Shown in pieces: positions 15,521 to 53,949 of a DNA stretch of 56,126 nt (the stretch's first letter is position 1; the number at the start of each line of letters is the position of its first letter). The notes under the pieces are model-generated. The model made no database searches, was not told the DNA's origin, and saw nothing but the letters and a program-made list of their open reading frames with translations. This stretch comes from Rotaria socialis (lineage: Eukaryota). The stretch lies in assembly GCA_905331295.1 (NCBI GenBank), contig CAJNYD010000551.1, positions 124,001 to 180,126 of the forward strand, written 5' to 3'. Both the position numbers and the translations under genes were made by a program.

Positions 15521-17326
15521 TTAGGTTAATCGAAATAGCCATTTGTTCACCATATTATATCGACCTTCAAGTACAATCTTATAGAAGTCCGATGGATAGC
15601 TTTTGACATCAATCTCAGCTGTTTTCAAAGCGATATGCTCTGTTCCCATGAGCTGATAATCATCAGATTTTCCCTTCTGAAATGAATTAGTAGTTGAAAG
15701 CCATATTGTCACATTGCCTTCATCATCGAATGCTTGCCAACTAAACTTGATACGATCACCAGTTAATTGTGCTTCAAAGTTGGCTAATGAAATTTTTCCA
15801 ATCAATGAAATTCCGTCTAGTTCTCGAGCCGATTCTATTGGGACCGAGATACTAAGAAATTGTGCCATTGTTGGCAATAAGTCAACGATAGCAGGCTGAA
15901 AATTACGAAAATAATCATTTGTATTCTGTGTATTCATCACTATCCAGGTTGTACGTTCTCGGTCGGATTGTTCTCCATGTTCGCGACCTGTAGTCGGATC
16001 TCGGCCATGGTCAGTTGTAATAATTATCAGCCAGTCCTCATGAAAGTGGTTCTGTCGATACTCGATCGCTTCCCACATTCGACCAATTTGATTATCAAGA
16101 CTAATAACACTTTGATTGAATTGTTCACTATCTCCGAAATGATGTGCCACATCATCAGTATACTGTAAATAAGTCCATGATAGATCTGGTGCTGCTGTTC
16201 GGATACATGTGGCAGCTTCATTTGCCACACGTTCATCGATCCTATAAATATAGTAATCTGCTAGATCATGTGGATAAGCGTGTTGGTTTAATTCATATCC
16301 GTCAAATTTATAATCGAAAATAATTTGACCAGCCTGCGGTAGACCTTCACCCACAAGTTTGAGACGATTATCTAACCAAGTAGAAAAGATACCGATTTCC
16401 CTTTGTGGTTCTTGTTCTTTCAACAATCGGAAAATGTTTTTATAATGATAGTTAGGATTTTTGACATCATTATCGAACACATTATGTTTGTTACCCCATG
16501 TTCCAGTAATTAGATCCATGTAACCTGGAGCAGAAACGGTTGGTGTCTCTGAATAAGACCCCTTGATGCCTCCTACGTATGCTCTCTTATATGTTCCAAG
16601 GTCAGAGATCTTTCTAATATTCGGAGCCGAAGCAGCTTCAATAACATCGGCAGGAATACCATCTGCGATAATGAACAACACTTTCTTGGTCATCTGTTGA
16701 ATAGTGATATTTCCAGGACGGAATATATCTAAAGCAAAAGCCAATGACCCTTTATTCATAGATCGGTTGTTGTTCTCATTAAGAGAAGCTCAGTAAACAT
16801 TCTGTACTGGCAAAGTATTTACCTGTTGAACTTGTATTGTCTGATGTTGTGTCTTCTTTGTCTCGTGATCCTTGAATACTTGTCTTCCCTTTCGTATAGA
16901 CAATAACGATCATAGATATGAAAATGATAGCCATTACCAAGACACCCAACCAGACAAAAGTGCGCATACTGAATAACGTACTGGACCTCTTCTGAGGAAG
17001 AATTCCAGTGATGATTTTATTATTGTCTCCATGAGCATCTGAATTATTGTCGGCCGGATCACGGCTTACTACTAATAGAAGCTTGCTCTCTCTTCCAACA
17101 TGCGATCCAGTCGAAGGTGGGCCTACAATAAAGAGATTGTATTTATATCATTGACTCTTTGATTTTTGAATAAGAAGAGAACCCATCGAATACGAAAGAA
17201 ACAAATCGATCATTCGAATATGATACTCTCGTAAGGAATTTTATAGACAGCAATTTAATAATAAACACTGATCTTACCATCATTTTCGTGGCTCAGAAGT
17301 GCTGGATCTAACTCGCTATGCATCAT
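15521..17326 (-). CDS. Membrane-anchored alkaline-phosphatase-superfamily / nucleotide pyrophosphatase-like enzyme, bacterial-type catalytic domain, 3 exons
   Basis: Exons 17326-17278, 17122-16823 and 16728-15521 join in frame through two phase-1 GT-AG introns. TM helix FVWLGVLVMAIIFISMIVIVY. Catalytic and metal motifs FIIADGIPAD, TVSAPGY, YLQYTDDVAH and TTDHG. Confidence 0.88.
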
Positions 17327-31653: not shown

Positions 31654-32396
31654 TTATTCGAAGACGACCACAAGTTGTTCTTTATGAACAATTCTTATTT
31701 CATCGACTAATAATCTAGATAGTTCACCGGCTGTATGCGCAACATAGTGACACACTTCAGACGATACGGGCCGCCCAGAAAGCAACGATGGAAGATTATT
31801 TAAACCAGCATCTGGTATAGCTAAGAGTTTTGGTGATGACAAAGATTTAATTAATAATTGTTTTAATGAATCATTTTTTGAATTGACTTCGTATGCATTT
31901 GCATTTCTTTGACGAATATTAGATCCACCACCACCGGTAACATCAATTAATTTGGAAAACATACCTTCAACAATACGTGCCATTTCGTTATGAGCATTTT
32001 GACTGTCTAAGAAGAAAAAACAGCCAAAAAATTTAATGCTAAATTCTTTTTTCCCGAATATTCTCACCTGTTCTAGTTTCTACTCTGCCTTGATCAGTTA
32101 CAGGTTGTTCTGGAGGTGGAATTACTGATAAAAATTCACTATTTAGTGGTGAACTGAGAGTCACTGGTGTCGTTGGCGGGCAATTATGATTACCTGATTT
32201 ACTTAGTAGTCTATTTAAAAAGGAAATAGAACTTTATTTATTTAAAACACATAAAAACATACGGTGTTCGTTCGCTGCCTTTGGGTGCAGATACAGAAGT
32301 TTGTTGCGGATTCTGTATCTCTGATGTATCATTAAGGCTACCATTCGATTGTGATTGATCTTCGTTTTTAACACACCATGAACATATATTACCCAT
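31654..32396 (-). CDS. LAMTOR1: Ragulator subunit p18, 3 exons
   Basis: Myristoylation/palmitoylation-type start MGNICSWC; dileucine SERTP|LL; KLIDV; C-terminus IRIVHKEQLVVVFE matches the conserved IRVDAKEELVVQF end. Confidence 0.85.
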
Positions 32397-33523
32397 TTTT
32401 TAAATGAAAGATAATATAACTAAAAACAAAAGTGTATAATAGAAAAATTCGACTCTCGAAGAAAAAAAAACAGCTGTGATAAAGCAACGATATGAGTAAT
32501 ACTCTGTATGGCTATTTTTTCCGCGTGATAACACTCCGAAGTTACAAAGATGTCGGTAGATATCGAAAAGAATTTCATTGAAAAATAAAATAATTGAGAT
32601 CAAACTCAATAAAAAAATATAGAAGATTTATCAGTGAGTAATCTCTAAATTTCAATGGCAACGCTCGTAAATTTATTCTAGTACCGATCGGCCACGCCCT
32701 CTTCGGCTAAGTGATCTAAAACTCTGAGATATCGCACATCAGACGGTAGGCGATGTCGAGGTCTTGTTTATCTAGAAAAGTTATGAATGGCTCAAATGGA
32801 TGCTTTTTCACTGCTCAAAAGCTCTTGCCTTGCAATACCACAAGATGTGCAGTAATGTTTTTTTAATGTCATGTCTTTTGCAGAACGTGCGTGAAAGTAT
32901 TGAAGCGCTAAGCTGCCGTATGGGTGAATATATATATATATATAAATATTAGAAAAGAAGAGCATCTACTTACTGTTCATTAAACAATAATTATATCTAG
33001 CCGCATGATGAATTCTTCTGCAAAAGAGTATTAAATTATGTATCTCTCGAATAATTCATGAATTAAATTGATATAAGAAAATAATGAAGAAGATTTCAGA
33101 TAGGGAATTTAGATCATAGATCAGAAAAATATTTTGTAAACTGAAATAAAAAAACTTGATATATTCAAGATTTTGTCAGGTGTGGTATTTCGCCAGTGAA
33201 TTGATATTTTATCAAGAAATTATTTTTTTTTACATGAAGTGGATTATTATAATTATGTTCGCTCGTATCTGTGCACTTTATAAAACATAAGGTCATATTG
33301 TTTTCAAATAGTTGAAGTGTACCCAATGATTCAGATTAAAAAGGACTAGCTTTTCATTCATAGTTTTCTCATAAAACAAGAAAATTCTGTGCAAGAAATG
33401 TTTTGGGCAAAAATTCATTCTGTTAGATTTATTGAAATAAAAGAAGAAGAAAACGGATATTAAAGAAATAAACAAAAGCTATTTTAATTGTTCTCATGAT
33501 TTTGAACCAGTAGAGTTTGCCGG

Positions 33524-33646
33524 TTAATCTCGTGGACATTGACATCGTTCTGTGACTGGAACATCTTTTAATGTTTGTTCAATATGTTGACCACAGCCTC
33601 GCCATGTTGGCTTGCCACATTTGTCACAAGTAACTTTCATGCACAT
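33524..33646 (-). CDS. 40-aa Cys/His-rich putative zinc-binding microprotein, below the ORF-track cutoff
   Basis: MCMKVTCDKCGKPTWRGCGQHIEQTLKDVPVTERCQCPRD*; fits the CxxCGKxTWxGCGxH...VP...RCxC small-protein pattern; a TATAAATA lies upstream on the minus strand near 33727-33734. Confidence 0.85.
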   Translation of the reverse strand: MCMKVTCDKCGKPTWRGCGQHIEQTLKDVPVTERCQCPRD

Positions 33647-34576
33647 TGCTCAAGCGGTATAAAATAATAGTAAAAAAAAATATATATTGGTGTTTTTTTT
33701 GTCGTAGCATACTCCACTATATTCTCTATTTATATACATTGCTACAAAAAGAAGAATAAAAGAAAAAAGAGAATGCCGGCACCCCCCTTTTTTCTCTCGC
33801 TTTATCGACATGAGTAACAAGAGACGGGCGAAAGGAAAGCCTTCGATGTATGTCAGAAGAAGATGCGATGCAGTCGGAAGAAAAAGAAAAATTTGCTCTT
33901 GCAGCACACATAATGGCATAATAGATTTTTAGGCAACACCTTATGAGAAATAGTTAGCTGATGAAATCTTAGATTTTATTGAAATTTTTCAGACTTTGAA
34001 CCGGATACTCTTGAAGGATAATCATGTAAAAAAAAGAACGAAGGAAAAATATTTCAGTGATTCTATAAAATTATGAATAGAGGCATTAGACCAAAGAAAA
34101 TTGATTAAATTCATTCAAAACTTATCATAGTAATTCTAATACGTGACGTTTGACACACAGAAAACAAAAATATAGTTTTATGAAGGCCAGTGGTTATGTT
34201 GAAATATTTATAATATTGCTCTAGACGTAAAAATTGCCAATTCTGTTTCCTTGTAACATGCCATGCTATATTAGATTCGAAGTGTTGGCTGTAACATCTA
34301 CATGATCATTTTTAATTAAGAATTTTCTTAGTCAAAATAAGCTGTTGCTTATCTACCATTGGTTCCTTTATGATTGCCGTGACAACTATTAGAAACTCGC
34401 AAAACATGTTTTCAAAGACAATTTTTGACAACTTCGTTTTTACTAGAGAAATTTAATCAGTTAGTTAGTTAAATGAAATATCGAACAATTAAACAAAGCA
34501 CTTATTATTTATCAATTGGAAAAAAAAGAAAAATATAAGAAAAAATGAATTGTACAATATATCAATAAGCTGCTCA

Positions 34577-35359
34577 TCAGAACCAATCAAGATCTGGTAT
34601 ATCAGCAAACGAGAAATCTCGGTCTCCCTTCCAAGCCCAATAAGCAATACGTAAATGATAAAAACCAGGCAGAAAAACTAATGTTCCAATAAGTATTAAT
34701 GGCCACGTACGATCACTATACTACAATACCATAAAATAGAAAACAATTAAGTATAAAGTCATATCGAAAAGAAAATTACAAACTTGTGTTTCTATGCGAC
34801 CAGTTAACATTAACGCCCCTAAGGTAATCATCACAGAACCGATAAGAAAGAGCACAACAGCTAGAACAATAGCAAAAATAGGTACTTTGACCTGTGGCTC
34901 TTGAAACTAAAACGAAATAAAAGTTTGAAAGTTTCTTTTCTTATTATATTTCATAATAATAAATATGAATCTAACTTGTAAATCAGAATATTGCTTTTCT
35001 TCTTCTAGGCGATGATACGGTGAGGGTTTGTCATCTTCAGTTTTTGACTTGAAGATATTTCTAAAGAATAATATATATATATGTATAAATATAATTTCGA
35101 ATAAATGCAAAGATAAGTCGCAGGCATCAATACGATTCACGATAGGCAACTCAAGAATAGAAGTTCTGAATACGCATTGTATTAGCCTTACCTGACTGGA
35201 CTTCTGAAGCGCTAAAAGACAAAAATAGAATCATTGTTTAATTACAATAACAATTGAAGATACAGGAGGAAAAAACTAGAAAAAAAGAATCGTTTTTATT
35301 TTAAAGTTAAAGTAGCGTAAACGAGCAACTTCGAAAGGATACCTTTAAAAATATAACAT
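34577..35359 (-). CDS. TMEM230: Transmembrane protein 230; 5' end inferred and needs a 1-nt homopolymer correction
   Basis: [38 protein letters not shown]...|[43 protein letters not shown]. The ATG at 35359 joins in frame only if one base is added to the run at 35347-35351. Confidence 0.88.
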
Positions 35360-44073: not shown

Positions 44074-45483
44074 TTATGTAGCAGAAATGAAACGATCGAT
44101 GAGATCAAAGGCTGCACGTGGTTGTTCACTAGGAACTGAGTGACCAGCATTCCGAACCCAAGCCAAAAAGAAAGAATGTGCTTGCTTCAGATAACCAGCT
44201 ACCTCTCGATCGTCTTCTTTCACTTTCCAAACAATGCGTTCGGCACTACGCAACTGATCGGCATAGTTCCATTCGAGTTTATCAATCCAATTCATCGTCA
44301 CTGAAGAAGGAATAATGACATCAAGCAGTCCATTGTAAATCAATACTTTATAGTCATTGTTGGCTATCATCGCTACTTTGCTTGCAATTGACTGCATCGC
44401 ATCATCTTGAAGAGCAATCTGTACTTTTTCACCATCATTATATGTCATATTGCCTACATGAATTTGACGACGGTGCTCACTTGCCATCACCCAAGGAATA
44501 TAGTAGAAGTAATCGTCGGGAAAATTGGTACGAAGATAATCGTCAGCATCAATCATACCGGTCTTATTTGGATAGAAACTATCGAAAAGATCGCCAAAAA
44601 TAGAGTAAGCTTGTTGATATTGACCTTGTCGGATGGCTTCACGCACTAATGCTGTCAATAAATTAACATATTCTAGTTGTCGTTGATCAATCAAACCCAT
44701 TTGATACATCGCTGGTCCATAATCCCATTGATTATAAGGATCTATCAAACCATTACCGATGGCCATTCCTTTTAGATTGATTTTTAATTTGGCTTGAGGA
44801 TTTTCTGTGTGAATTTTATAAACAATAGCTGGTACATATTTGCCACCATAGGACTCGCCAGTAGCATAGAAATGACACGACGCATATTCGTAATAAATTT
44901 GAAAGAATTGGATGAGCATCGCGTAAAGATCACGTGCTACTTCATCTTCAGTATGCACATAGCATTGATCGGCGGCAGTAAAACTAAAGCCAGTGCCAAC
45001 CGGTTGATCAATAAAGAGAAGATGATATTTAGAATTCCAAGTGATATTTCTTGGATGAAGCTGCTCATTTTCGTCGACTTGAATTGGGCCATGCTCGGAG
45101 AAAAGACCAAAAAGAGACGATGCACCAGGTCCACCTTGTAACCAAACAACCAACGGCGAATCAACATGACCATTTTGAGCAGGAAAGAACCAAAAAAATA
45201 GACTACTATTACATGTCTTATTGATAGTTAAATAGCCGGAATAGGATAGAGAAGAATAAGCTGGTTGTAAATGTACTTGGCTTAAGTTACGAGCTAGATC
45301 GATTTGACCTGTTTCTAAATAAGGTGTCAGAAAGAGCGGCTCGCCAGGATCATCCCCTGGTAGAAATGGAGTTTGAGAAATGCTGGCGAGGTGACGACGA
45401 AGTAGATCGAAAGCTTCGATACAAACTGATGAATAAAATAAGAGAATAACAAAAGCAGACAGATGGTTTAGGGAATGAAACAT
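44074..45483 (-). CDS. CPVL: Serine carboxypeptidase S10, CPVL/vitellogenic-like, intronless
   Basis: Signal peptide after the ATG at 45483; GEPLFLTPYL, WLQGGPGASS, GESYGGKY (Ser), NGLLDVII (Asp), AGHSVP (His). Confidence 0.92.
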   Translation of the reverse strand: MFHSLNHLSAFVILLFYSSVCIEAFDLLRRHLASISQTPFLPGDDPGEPLFLTPYLETGQIDLARNLSQVHLQPAYSSLSYSGYLTINKTCNSSLFFWFFPAQNGHVDSPLVVWLQGGPGASSLFGLFSEHGPIQVDENEQLHPRNITWNSKYHLLFIDQPVGTGFSFTAADQCYVHTEDEVARDLYAMLIQFFQIYYEYASCHFYATGESYGGKYVPAIVYKIHTENPQAKLKINLKGMAIGNGLIDPYNQWDYGPAMYQMGLIDQRQLEYVNLLTALVREAIRQGQYQQAYSIFGDLFDSFYPNKTGMIDADDYLRTNFPDDYFYYIPWVMASEHRRQIHVGNMTYNDGEKVQIALQDDAMQSIASKVAMIANNDYKVLIYNGLLDVIIPSSVTMNWIDKLEWNYADQLRSAERIVWKVKEDDREVAGYLKQAHSFFLAWVRNAGHSVPSEQPRAAFDLIDRFISAT

Positions 45484-45769
45484 GGTTTGTTTGTTGTCAC
45501 AAATGTGTGTGCTTGCACGGATCCGTGCTGTGTCTCTTATCAAAATGTGATAAAAAAAAGAGAAAAAGAAAGCTGTCTTTAATCATCATATTTACATAGA
45601 CGATTCTTTTCTAACCAATCTGAGTCAAGTTAGCCCTCGAGATAAAAGAATTCAAGGAATAATATCTGAATATTCATCAGCAACTAATCAACCAGTTAAA
45701 AAATAAATAAAAGGAATCGTTCTCACAATAGCTCAATGAGTTCAATCACTAATCGATAAGAAGAACAGG

Positions 45770-48850: not shown

Positions 48851-49571
48851 TCTATAAATTTAAAATTCAAATTTAAATTTCTATTTAAGTTTTGTTTTAT
48901 TTATATACCAACATATAAATTGAAGACGGAACCAGTATATGTTTTGAAGCGTTCTTTGTAAAAACTTCAAAAACAAAACTCTTTAATCAATACGGGAACA
49001 ACTAAACAATGGAACCAGATAATATGAAAAAGAAATTAAAACGGTTTTCCTCAACGTCACGAAAAGTTTTATGCTGTGAAGACACAGCACAAACTATGAG
49101 CACATCGTTCTGATACTTCTTGTATCAACAATCATCAAATATAGATATCATTCGTTGTTACAATCTGTAGTCATAATCCGGAAAAATCTTTCAAAGCAGC
49201 TCGTTTATCATTCAACTGCAGATGCGCCCGTATACGTATGATATAAATCTTAAAAGATAAGTTCTATAGAACTTCCTAGATTTTCGATTAACTATTTATG
49301 ACCATGTTCCAGATAATTTGGCAGGCTACTTGACTCTGTTAGCTGGTGCTGACATGCCATATCTTTACTACTCAAAATGAACTGATGTTACAGTAGAGAA
49401 AAGCGTTCTCTGAATCTTCAAATGATAAAATATTTGTTTTGCTTATCTACCTTTCTCTTTTTATAAAACGGTTTTAGTATAGTTAACTGAATGTAAAAAA
49501 AACAGATAATTTTATCTGCAATCGTCAGTGATATTTTATACTTGTTGTCTTGCTTCTAGATTTTCATCCCA

Positions 49572-50621
49572 ATGTCAAAAACAATTCTTGTTACAGGCGC
49601 TAATTCTTTTATCGGTACTTGGATCGTCCAAGATCTTCTTGAGAAAGGTTACAGCGTTCGTGGAACAGTACGATCTCAAGCGAAAGAAACCCAAGTTCTT
49701 GATGGTGTTTCGAAGGATTATCACAGTAGAATTTCGTTTGTACACATTAATGATATTACTACAGACTCATTTGATGAAGCTGTGAAAGGTGTTCTTGGCA
49801 TTATTCACGTTGCTTCGCCATTTCATTTCAACGTCACAGATCCAGAAAAAGATCTAATTTTGCCAGCTATCAATGGTACTCTTGGCGTTCTGAAAGCAGC
49901 TCACGCATACAACCAAAACAATGATAATACAATAAAAAGAGTAGTTATTACATCATCATTTGCTTCGATCTTTGATCCAAGCAAAGGACTACGACCTGGC
50001 TATTCATATACTGAGAAAGACTGGTCTCCAGTCACCTACGAGCAAGGAGCAGCTGCTAAAAATGAACCAATGACGGCTTATCGTGCGTCAAAAGTATGTG
50101 CTGAACGCGCTGCATGGGACTTCATTGATAAGGAAAAACCTTCGTTTACAATCGCAACCATATGTGAACCACTGGTCTTTGGACCACGCGCTGGTGGTTT
50201 CAGATCACTGGATGATATTAATACTTCTAATGCATCAGTACGAGGACTGGTCACTAGCGGTAAAGATGCTCCAATGCTCGAAACACGAGTACCATTCCAA
50301 GTAGATGTAAGAGATGTGGCTCACACACACACAGCAGCTCTAGAACGATCAACTGATACAAGCGAACGCTATCTAATAGCAGGAGGAACTTGGAGTTTTC
50401 AGGAAATAGCGGATCTCGTTCATAGCAGTACCGTCATTCCGGACAATATCAAGAATACTACGCCAGTTGGCATCAAAGGTCAATCACTTCCAGATCATTA
50501 TGAGATTGATAGTTCGAAGGCTCAAAAAGACTTGGGCATTACATATATTCCTTTGAAGAAAACGATGGAAGATTTAATTGTGCAATTAGCCGATTTACAA
50601 ACAATGCTAGAACAATCATGA
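49572..50621 (+). CDS. Extended SDR, fungal GRE2 / aldehyde reductase II-like NADPH-dependent reductase, intronless
   Basis: ILVTGANSFIG, VRGTVRS, IHVASPF, LILPAINGTLGVL, VVITSSFASI, catalytic AYRASK, AERAAWDFIDKEKPSF, VDVRDVA; AATAAA after the stop. Confidence 0.92.
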   Translation: MSKTILVTGANSFIGTWIVQDLLEKGYSVRGTVRSQAKETQVLDGVSKDYHSRISFVHINDITTDSFDEAVKGVLGIIHVASPFHFNVTDPEKDLILPAINGTLGVLKAAHAYNQNNDNTIKRVVITSSFASIFDPSKGLRPGYSYTEKDWSPVTYEQGAAAKNEPMTAYRASKVCAERAAWDFIDKEKPSFTIATICEPLVFGPRAGGFRSLDDINTSNASVRGLVTSGKDAPMLETRVPFQVDVRDVAHTHTAALERSTDTSERYLIAGGTWSFQEIADLVHSSTVIPDNIKNTTPVGIKGQSLPDHYEIDSSKAQKDLGITYIPLKKTMEDLIVQLADLQTMLEQS

Positions 50622-51742: not shown

Positions 51743-52685
51743 ACGCCGAAAAGTTTTAAAGGCCATAACAATTTTAGAACAAAACACTATGGAAAACTGT
51801 TTCGTAACTTTTTTTAATCTTAGAAAAGATTTCATCACATTAGAAAAATTTCGACTAATTTGAACTGTACAATGAATGAATACAATAATAATCCTGTACG
51901 AAAAGACACGCTCCACAAAGGAAAAAACAAACGATTTTATGGTATCATTTGTGTCGACTCTTTTTTTATTACCATCGATGACAGTCAAAAAAAATGAGAT
52001 CTATTCAGAGTGAGTGGTTACAAGAAGTTATAAAGTTTGAATGAAAAATAAACCATATTGAGTTCTCTGTCATTCTGTATTATTTTGAATAAGACACATG
52101 CTTTCTGTGACATATTCAGTCAATCACTTATTTTTCACTTTATAAATCCTAAATTGACTATATCAAGCTATTTAATCCCATCGCCGACTGCCTATTGTTC
52201 TTTTATATGACGCCAACTATTTTAGCATCATGCGAAAGCCTTCATTGTTATAAACAATTGCATCTATAGGATCCTTGAAAATACTGATAGTGGATAATGA
52301 AAACTATCGTTAAACTTGCAGCAAACTTGCCCAACGTCATTTGTCCTAAAATTTGTATGACCATTGACAAACATCTTCAATCAAATTCTTTCATATAGTT
52401 TTGCACCCGATATTTTTCTCTTTCTAAAAATATGAAGTCGTCAAGACATTTCATTGCAGTGGTATTTGAAAAGCAAAATTAATACGGAGTCTTCATCCTA
52501 TTCATTTGCTTTTCATCAATATGCTCTTTTTTCATAGATAAAAGATAGCACAGTGACTGATTCTAACTACACCTATCAAAGATTATAATGTGTCCTGACA
52601 AGAATATGTATGCTTTTCTTTAAACATATAAATAATTCTGTGTCTCAATTGAATATTGTTCCATAATTAAAACTATTTTCAGACA

Positions 52686-53949
52686 ATGGACCATCAATGG
52701 AATCTAAATCAATATATAACTTACATTTTATTAACACTTGTTTTTCTTTCATCATGGACAGATATTAATGGAATGTATGCAGAACTGCCACAAGTTATTT
52801 TAACTCAACCTGAAAGTTGGAAATTAGGTGCAAATCTAGCGTTAATTACAAATTTTGGTAATATTTCACCCTTAATACTTGTTCTTATTAAATGTTTGTA
52901 CCGAAAGCATACACTTAATCCAGTACCAATTAATTATATTGTTATACTCATTGGTATGCTCTCATGTTTTTTATTAATTTTCCTTTGGTCATATACAACA
53001 GTCATTGCTAATGTAAGACGTAGTACAGCATTATTAACTCTTGCATTATTTCTTTCGTTACTCGATTGTACATCATCAGTTTCATTTGCTGATTATATAC
53101 ATCGATTTCGAAAAGAATTTACGAGTGCATTTTTCCTTGGTGAAAGTCTTACATTTACTATACCAAGTCTATTGGCAATTGCACAAGGTAATGGTCGAAT
53201 TCGTTGTGTTCAAGCAATCAATGGAACAAATACAACTGAAGCCATTTATGAACCTCCACGATTTTCAGTATCAATCTATTTTTTATGTTTATTTATTCTG
53301 TTAACCATTTCATTTATCTCATTCGTACTTTTTACAATGGACATCTATTGCTCGAAATGCAAATCAAATCGTACCGGAAGAATCATTGGAAATAATGAAT
53401 ACAATTGATAAAAAAGAAAAATCGTTAACTACGCCATGCTACATTCTTCTTTCATTAGGATGTGCTTATATCAGTTCAATTGTGTTTGGAATGATTCTAT
53501 CAATTTCCGCATATGCTTTAATGCCTTATGGACATAACATTTTTTATCTAGGAACAATTCTTTCACCATGGATGTTGACATTTGTTTGGATACTTGGTAT
53601 AATAAAACCTATTTTACCGAAATGTTTTATATTAATTTTAATTATACTTGGATCATTTACATTTGCATTGATTATGTATGTTTCTTTCAAAAGTCCGTGT
53701 CCTCCATGGGTTGATACAACTAAGGGAAGTGCTTTAATTTTATTTATATGGCTTAGTAATTACATATTGTTGGGTTATCCTCGTTTGATTATTGCAAATT
53801 ATATACGAACATATTCTCCTAATGGAATGTTTTGGTTTGGTGTTCAAGTACAATTTGGGGGATTAGTTGGCTCCATTATTTCTTATCTTTTTATTGAAAC
53901 ATTTTCGTTATTTCGTGAACGAATACCATGTGAACAATATAATTGTTAA
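52686..53949 (+). CDS. SLC52A: Riboflavin transporter, intronless, with a +1 frameshift in the T-run at 53329-53333
   Basis: SSWTDINGMYAELP, PESWKL, NFGNISP, LLDCTSSVSF, FFLGESL, PPRFSVS, YALMPYG, SPCPP. Deleting one T fuses ORFs 52686-53408 and 53386-53949 through VLLQWTSIARNANQ. Confidence 0.88.

Follow-up and report, generated by a model that had tools for sequence, protein, structure and literature searches.

A short open reading frame (ORF) is found on the minus strand of a 56,126-nucleotide (nt) stretch of Rotaria socialis DNA (contig CAJNYD010000551.1, positions 124,001 to 180,126), here termed the window. Its 40-amino-acid (aa) product, a microprotein with 6 Cys and 1 His, is proposed here to be a zinc-binding, small and recyclable buffer or carrier of sulfane sulfur (persulfide) that was probably inherited within Spiralia; taken as a whole, this proposal is held with evenly balanced confidence. 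The gene itself is almost certainly real. Chance is ruled out as the source of the frame by the homologue search that had been suggested for it: with the single protein as query, homologues appear at E values of 2e-15 and 7e-15, and a three-row profile reaches 957 clusters at 50% identity. The start context is gagcaATG, and the 54 nt upstream of it contain no ATG. A sequence-only reading made before this analysis gave the ORF sequence, its coordinates, the lack of introns and the Cys and His count correctly, and left the strand unstated; read on the plus strand, the same frame of 33524-33646 is broken by a stop.

The ORF is richer in G + C (40.7%) than its 200-nt flanks (34.5% and 28.0%), as had been noticed. 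Three of four other long ORFs measured in the window have a G + C content of 38.7-40.9% (the fourth, 30.6%), and the G + C content at third codon positions (GC3) of the 40-aa ORF is 22.5%. Because the other ORFs are similar and GC3 is so low, the composition is that of ordinary host coding sequence. Raised G + C as a mark of foreign origin is ruled out on the same two grounds, the comparable values in three of the four ORFs and the host-like GC3. A TATA-like box is present upstream, in agreement with the sequence-only reading. The TATAWAAA motif occurs 27 times across the window, so the box alone is weak proof. The description of the gene as unannotated stands for the exact protein, which is missing from a collection of 15 billion proteins, but not for its relatives: those of the bdelloids Adineta vaga, A. 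ricciae and Didymodactylos, and a paralogue in R. socialis, are on record under the label of hypothetical protein. This paralogue is found in DNA and RNA runs and matches an annotated 75-aa R. socialis protein, copy number being judged from sequencing-run contigs and the protein collection.

The gene is transcribed, with poly(A)-tailed contigs. Contigs from seven of 20 sequencing runs were placed on the window, and three runs (X12, X9 and X13) are taken as RNA because the GT-AG introns of adjoining genes are spliced out of their contigs and most intergenic bins receive no contig; the DNA run X5, for contrast, covers all bins and has none of those splice joints. In the window's own sequence type, contigs from the three RNA runs span approximately 33395-33695 and leave the ORF free of joints, and one X9 contig record covers 33403-33695. 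Contig depth over the gene is far above that of the neighbours in X12 and differs little from it in X9, but it is no measure by which genes can be ranked. The rotifer spliced leader, whose sequence is given in Table 1 of PMC3795323, is joined at 33669 on an X13 contig from another species, organism C, where 21 of 23 nt agree with it. The window has no AG acceptor at 33669, and leader joining at this gene is seen only in that contig; in X12 a leader fragment lies on the downstream neighbour and none on the 40-aa gene.

In orthologous contigs of two other species, the listed internal differences are all synonymous (four of four); the X16 record has four further differences apart from these. Where the ORF has its stop codon, organism D has one for Gln, and organism C is also changed at this place. 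Bdelloid-type orthologues with tails are 45-52 aa long. As the stop corresponds to a Gln codon and the frame continues behind it as PANSTGSKS, the 40-aa form is likely to be a trimmed version of a 50-aa protein. Synteny is kept at five AT-rich loci (four distinct) among 47 metagenome loci, all five with the upstream neighbour and three (two distinct) with the downstream one as well. The location beside spliced genes on a single DNA contig, the poly(A) tails and the synteny place the gene in an animal genome and rule out contamination as its source. A protein encoded at 49572-50618 of the window is present unchanged in the protein collection, in a cluster with R. magnacalcarata and R. socialis as its named members, which identifies the host as a Rotaria bdelloid. 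The features of the locus and the other genes of the window are collected below.

Features of the 40-aa gene, its neighbours and other ORFs of the window (positions are those of the window)
Feature	Position	Strand	Remarks
40-aa ORF plus stop codon	33646-33524	minus	Intronless; M-C2-x4-C7-x2-C10-x4-W15-x-G-C18-G-x-H21-x13-C35-x-C37
5' untranslated region	33647..33695	minus	No upstream ATG; farthest 5' contig end at 33695
TATA-like box TATATAAA	33729..33736	minus	Putative; 34-41 nt upstream of the farthest 5' contig end
Probable former C-terminal tail PANSTGSKS, then stop	33494..33523	minus	In frame behind the ORF stop
Poly(A) signal AATAAA	33428..33433	minus	
Poly(A) addition sites	33395..33414	minus	Non-templated T runs before 33397, 33401 and 33414 (X12) and 33395 (X13)
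Upstream neighbour	34422..35212	minus	Spliced; small membrane protein; same neighbour in 5 metagenome loci
Downstream neighbour	31654..32421	minus	Spliced; spliced-leader loose end; also in 3 of the same metagenome loci
Phosphodiesterase/alkaline-phosphatase family ORF	15521-16789	minus	Long, intronless
NAD-dependent epimerase/reductase ORF	49560-50621	plus	Long, intronless
Serine carboxypeptidase ORF	44074-45582	minus	Long, intronless
SLC52 riboflavin-transporter gene	52671-53949	plus	Two overlapping frames, 52671-53408 and 53305-53949
ORF of 417 aa	13175-14428	plus	No Pfam match
ORF of 168 aa	39772-40278	minus	No Pfam match

Profile searches place the microprotein in a family of 3,669 proteins at 90% clustering, with 957 representatives at 50%. 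The family is uncharacterised, as had been stated, in spite of its thousands of members: none of 75 aligned members has a Pfam match at E 0.001, and no NCBIfam model matches the window's 40-aa protein. A weak Pfam match to zf_UBZ covers 9 residues of this protein (E 0.13), a PDB search by sequence gave weak, unrelated rows only, and a search of the ESM Atlas gave unnamed clusters only. Homologue listings comprise the best 120 or 150 rows per search, mostly without names. Beyond the bdelloids, animal members are found in Taenia solium (72% identity), Schistosoma japonicum (68%), Helobdella robusta (63%) and Magallana gigas (27 of 39 positions identical). This animal evidence consists of the records of four assemblies, taken as deposited, and the animals considered are Spiralia. 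The oyster gene model joins the microprotein to a DDE transposase fragment, probably a gene-prediction artefact. Other eukaryotes named are chytrids, Mortierellaceae, Tieghemiomyces, Leucosporidium and Hondaea. The sequence-only reading is thus borne out for fungi, a protist and actinobacteria, and plants are not among the named rows (best 120 per search). The N-terminal motif is presumably also that of PANTHER PTHR34724, which has plant, fungal and bacterial members and is likewise uncharacterised.

A pattern scan of prokaryote genomes gave at least 121 non-duplicate matches, among them 111 in Actinomycetota, 4 in Chloroflexota and 3 in Myxococcota. In evenly drawn samples, the gene is present in 25 of 251 Actinomycetota and 26 of 151 Myxococcota genomes (both counts include the centre genome, and one Myxococcota genome is marginal). 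It is also carried by mobile and viral DNA. Sixty-six plasmid records contain a match, and the annotation shows no feature at any of the 20 matches listed; a match is also found in 14 viral contigs. Five AT-rich, giant-virus-like IMG/VR contigs (one has GVMAG in its name, and two are 261 and 482 kb long) encode the same microprotein; their identity is taken from record names, size and gene style, and no sulfur genes or CsoR lie near the microprotein on them. Four phage-like contigs and the phage record MT835623.1 encode a copy of 37-41 aa, two with a Shine-Dalgarno site, a possible auxiliary gene.

The genes that surround the bacterial members point to sulfur detoxification. Plasmid regions were inspected in six of the 66 records, taken from the best 20 rows for their different genera (two are Rhodococcus). 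All six contain two or more of MBL-fold hydrolase, TauE, rhodanese, DsrE, CsoR and FAD oxidoreductase genes, the MBL-fold hydrolase in four. From a first genome set, 80 loci with flanks were taken and six overlapping duplicates dropped. When the neighbours at the remaining 74 loci are clustered blind, the top families are MBL-rhodanese, CsoR, thioredoxin, CoA-disulfide reductase (CoADR)-rhodanese, SQR-like and rhodanese proteins. CsoR is the commonest neighbour (25 of 74 loci), and thioredoxin is found at 15. A sulfur-pathway gene lies within 5 kb or before the contig end at 31 of the 74 loci, or at 36 if CsoR is counted. The neighbours so counted are persulfide dioxygenase (PDO)-rhodanese, CoADR-rhodanese, SQR-like, rhodanese and TauE genes, the names PDO and SQR being given by domain make-up and motifs below the NCBIfam cut-offs.

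As the neighbour profiles were built from the same 74 loci, the test was repeated on an independent draw of 26 Actinomycetota loci from 24 genomes, from which the centre genome and a marginal, partial match were excluded; 60 windows of 10 kb from 20 of the same 24 genomes served as controls. Sulfur-pathway neighbours are found at 15 of the 26 loci and in 3 of the 60 controls (Fisher p 1.8e-7). At Myxococcota loci, rhodanese, MBL or CoADR-like genes lie within 1.5 kb in 6 of 12 cases, and at one locus the microprotein, a hydrophobic helix and a rhodanese are fused in frame; a further rhodanese case has an in-frame stop between both parts. Four unnamed eukaryote-like proteins have the domain joined to the N-terminus of a thioredoxin with the WCGPC motif. 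MMPL transporters, DUF302, YgaP-like and DUF4395 proteins recur in the sulfur clusters (7, 7, 3 and 1 of 74 loci, respectively) and may be further unrecognised parts of them. Clusters at ten loci contain two or three divergent copies of the microprotein gene; a tailed copy of the CxGH type often stands with a short one of the CxC type, and this pairing suggests that there are two functional subtypes.

A common operator accompanies the bacterial genes. It was first noticed as a palindrome upstream of plasmid copies and has the form TACCC-N4-GGGTA. It is present within 150 nt upstream of 56 of 129 microprotein genes as against 4 of the 365 other ORFs at these loci and 0.02% of shuffles, and in the second draw at 9 of 27 genes as against none in a 604-kb control. 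Fourteen of 39 genes with no sulfur or CsoR neighbour have it too, so that the microprotein gene appears to be a regulator target in its own right. At ten loci the last bases of the operator overlap the ATG, which suggests leaderless mRNAs that would be repressed at the start codon. No operator was found at the 12 Myxococcota loci.

The operator conforms to the site ATACCn6GGTAT bound by ScCsoR, a sulfane-sulfur sensor that controls PDO-rhodanese, TauE and rhodanese genes (PMC7533328). The same source likens this site to those of copper sensors. Among the CsoR proteins encoded nearby, all 38 legible ones, read by eye, lack the copper-binding His (one further copy is frameshifted), and the x-C-x-C pattern that they display has been described as that of candidate persulfide sensors in actinomycetes (PMC8643695). 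Copper-efflux genes are rare around the microprotein: the 74 loci contain no HMA motif, one P-type ATPase motif and one multicopper-like motif, and the 26 loci none of these. A copper regulon, with a CsoR or RicR of the x-C-H-C type and CopA or CopZ, was considered and is ruled out by the CsoRs without His and by the lack of enrichment of copper-efflux motifs. In bacteria, the gene has an upstream operator, an x-C-x-C CsoR and linked sulfur genes, with induction and repressor binding putative; it is very probably a member of a sulfane-sulfur regulon.

Conservation of the protein itself is consistent with a metal site. C35, which lies outside the search pattern, is invariant in all 131 distinct bacterial members, and the last ligand position is C37 in 78 of them and a His one to three places later in the other 53. 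Of 340 proteins that have the core motif, 339 have C2, 332 have C35 and 326 have either C37 or a His close to it. There is one CxxC, in addition to C2, GCGxH and a CxC or CxxH. Cys and His typically replace each other as metal ligands, and since the last ligand swaps in this way, a metal site is likely, in line with the binding of metal that the sequence-only reading had put forward; on these sequence patterns, a metal-bound fold is held to be quite probable. The conserved positions other than ligands are W/F/Y15 (aromatic in 340 of 340), G17, G19 and V29-P30. An AlphaFold2 model from 75 rows (predicted local distance difference test, pLDDT, 86.8; predicted template modelling score, pTM, 0.50) predicts strands at 3-6 and 13-16 and a short helix at 22-25, and neither Foldseek nor VIA-align found a structural neighbour, searches of low power for a 40-residue model.

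The ends of the protein vary more. C-terminal tails are aromatic-basic in 64 of the 131 bacterial members and absent in 41, and some other members end in a hydrophobic helix. Three kinds of possible membrane anchor occur on the same domain, namely CaaX-like ends, hydrophobic helices and amphipathic FFxRLFGR-type tails, the last of which we take to resemble the MinD anchor. The leech protein has a His/Cys-rich tail, and the Hondaea protein is a tandem duplication. A Met-Cys start is found in 339 of 340 members. After removal of the Met, an N-terminal Cys could supply an amine ligand or be a substrate of a Cys N-degron pathway.

The following mechanism is proposed. C2, C7, C10, C18, H21, C35 and C37 (or a His in place of the last) would hold one or two zinc ions on a hairpin-helix frame. 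In bacteria, sulfane sulfur would lift a CsoR-type repressor, and the microprotein would be made along with PDO-rhodanese, TauE and CoADR-rhodanese. Its thiolates would take up sulfur as persulfide or polysulfide, with zinc released or loosened; the sulfur would then be passed on to rhodanese or PDO, or the thiolates would be reduced again by thioredoxin, as is reported for metallothionein-3. The rotifer protein would keep this sulfur chemistry without the operon. The link to the regulon comes from genomic context, the sulfur chemistry from the analogy with metallothionein-3, and the role in the rotifer from conservation of the protein. Persulfide handling is given an even standing as the main job of the microprotein, and the same job in the rotifer a standing slightly below even. 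More tentatively still, the 37-60-aa zinc-thiolate proteins of bacteria, fungi, spiralians and giant viruses could form an overlooked family that acts as the dedicated persulfide carrier of CstR/ScCsoR operons, reset by thioredoxin, and as a stand-alone buffer of reactive sulfur in eukaryotes.

Several observations weigh against a persulfide buffer. The functional evidence is guilt by association in bacteria; the rotifer locus has no sulfur pointers, its flanking genes are unrelated, and the operator is absent from the window. No sulfur-pathway gene lies nearby at 43 of the 74 and 11 of the 26 bacterial loci (some are on short contigs; among loci of at least 9 kb, 22 of 41). Approximately nine in ten sampled Actinomycetota genomes have no match, and since only 25 of 251 have the gene, the microprotein appears dispensable for the sulfur pathway. 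The Myxococcota neighbourhood count has no control set. The rhodanese fusion occurs in one genome of 121 among the matches listed (173 more are unlisted), with a likely membrane helix between the domains, and the thioredoxin fusions are unnamed, truncated predictions. The operator form is common to copper sensors such as RicR, and the Cys/His swap is as compatible with a metal site of structural function as with one that is redox-active.

One alternative is a plain metallothionein-like buffer or chaperone, which would store or scavenge Zn, Cu or Cd, or supply metal to the Fe-dependent PDO, and would reside in sulfur operons because sulfide stress disturbs metal pools. Seven conserved Cys/His positions with the swap, the operator form, the small size, the leech tail and the Hondaea duplication are all consistent with it. 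The lack of copper-efflux context in the 74 and 26 loci, the nearby CsoRs without the copper His and fusions that are with rhodanese and thioredoxin argue the other way, as do the 15% Cys, the conserved aromatic residue and the fixed spacing, in which the protein is unlike metallothioneins; this role is considered unlikely, if the foremost of the functional alternatives. Less likely again is a structural zinc finger that would act as adaptor or redox switch on a regulator, sulfurtransferase or membrane complex, with zinc release as a signal and no sink. Such a finger would account for the conserved surface at W/F/Y15, G17, G19 and V29-P30 and for the compact model (pLDDT 86.8). The tails of 64 of the 131 bacterial members resemble a membrane-binding helix, others having the hydrophobic helix; CsoR as commonest neighbour (25 of 74) and extracytoplasmic function (ECF) sigma factors adjoining at 4 of 12 Myxococcota loci also agree with this role. 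No single partner, however, is common to bacteria, fungi, animals and giant-virus-like contigs, and 41 of the 131 members and the window protein are tailless. A rubredoxin-like or Fe-S iron-binding electron carrier for SQR, CoADR or PDO reactions is very improbable: one CxxC knuckle on a hairpin and oxidoreductase neighbours would fit, but the second CxxC pair is missing, there are seven ligands including a His, and no rubredoxin or ferredoxin match was found by sequence or by fold, the fold search being weak for 40 residues.

Regarding origin, vertical descent within Spiralia is the favoured reading and is considered probable. The gene is found in four spiralian phyla and several fungal lineages, so old vertical descent with under-annotation and loss is the simpler reading; an older transfer into a spiralian or eukaryote stem may be an alternative. 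The sequence-only reading had instead proposed a non-metazoan source, and horizontal transfer of the bdelloid gene, or of this copy, from an actinobacterium or other microbe is now judged unlikely. Over 39 columns, the identities to the window protein are 31 for two Tessaracoccus proteins, the highest among the 46 other rows of the tree, 30 for A. vaga, 28 for Taenia, 27 for Schistosoma and oyster and 25 for leech; the best bacterial match exceeds the best non-bdelloid animal match by three residues (31 versus 28 of 39). The intronless gene, its occurrence on 66 plasmids and 14 viral contigs and an animal range seen only in Spiralia also agree with transfer, and bdelloids are described as holding many foreign genes (PMC4632278).

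Against transfer stand the homologues in Platyhelminthes, Annelida and Mollusca, the synteny of the window gene with bdelloid-type orthologues and its host-like GC3. Broad presence across Metazoa, which the sequence-only reading had itself set against transfer, is found in part: other animal phyla have the gene (Taenia, Schistosoma, Helobdella and Magallana), all of them seen within Spiralia. In a tree of 47 rows and 39 columns, a starred branch (97/85) unites Taenia, oyster and three bdelloid proteins. The window row stands beside this branch with weak placement, and Didymodactylos, Schistosoma and Helobdella lie elsewhere. By the approximately unbiased (AU) test over the 39 columns, none of three groupings is rejected: all animals (p 0.23), all eukaryotes (0.30) or the window protein with Tessaracoccus (0.21); the tree therefore rejects neither origin. 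A caution for calls of foreign genes in bdelloids follows from this case, in that a bacterial best match at 79% identity misleads when gene callers miss short animal homologues.

Other genes of the window were recorded in passing. The phosphodiesterase/alkaline-phosphatase and epimerase/reductase ORFs give the impression that they may be better candidates for horizontal transfer than the 40-aa gene; the serine carboxypeptidase ORF is likewise long and intronless. The overlap of the two SLC52 frames suggests a frameshift, an assembly error or a short intron. Of the immediate neighbours, the upstream one is presumably TMEM230-like and the downstream one presumably LAMTOR1-like; one exon frame of each was scanned, with no Pfam match.

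The association with sulfane-sulfur clusters was missed in the sequence-only reading, which had spoken of a metal or stress protein; genomic context sharpens this into a function that can be tested, the first for a widespread family with no Pfam or NCBIfam model. Persulfide-detoxification operons are pictured as a sensor, enzymes and an exporter; a tiny gene for a Cys-rich protein, controlled by that operator and left without annotation on the plasmids inspected, would be a part that this picture lacks. Actinobacteria rely on mycothiol and not on glutathione, which bears on the question of their sulfur carrier.

Known systems offer several points of comparison. Metallothioneins have approximately 25-30% Cys and few or no aromatic residues, a composition that the microprotein does not share (6 of 40 residues are Cys, W/F/Y15 is present in 340 of 340 and no Pfam match is found in 75 members). 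Zinc ribbons and rubredoxin have two CxxC knuckles around one metal. The microprotein as modelled would share one CxxC on a beta hairpin with zinc ribbons, rubredoxin knuckles and UBZ fingers, but the second knuckle is absent, and there is no significant Pfam, PDB or fold match in searches of low power. Metallothionein-3 is a closer likeness in chemistry. It is described as a sulfane-sulfur-binding zinc protein in which zinc is held on Cys or Cys-persulfide, is freed on oxidation and the protein is regenerated by thioredoxin (PMC12618007). The chemistry proposed for the microprotein would be alike, whereas there is no sequence relation, and the microprotein differs in its 6 Cys per 40 aa, in having His among its ligands, in its conserved Trp and in the hairpin-helix fold predicted for it.

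The ScCsoR circuit of Streptomyces coelicolor comprises ScCsoR, ScPDO, a rhodanese and TauE; the bacterial homologues of the microprotein lie among the same gene types, with the same 16-bp operator form and CsoRs without the His. Four genes are described for this circuit, and no microprotein is mentioned in the parts of the source drawn on here (PMC7533328). The rotifer, in contrast, has the microprotein and neither operon nor operator. The CstR-type regulons (CsoR family clusters 3, 4 and 10) likewise combine x-C-x-C regulators with PDO-rhodanese, CoA-persulfide reductase and rhodanese; the cst operator of S. mitis has one spacer base more than the microprotein operator, and the sections of that source used here name no small Cys-rich component (PMC8643695). 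In the open literature, supplements excluded, no description of the family, no mention of PTHR34724 and no tie between the family and a persulfide regulon was found. If the persulfide proposal holds, the microprotein would work, by analogy, like a miniature metallothionein-3 inside a system of the CstR/ScCsoR type. As a gene, the rotifer copy is unremarkable within a family that already existed, though uncharacterised; the tie of this family to persulfide regulons is the new functional lead.
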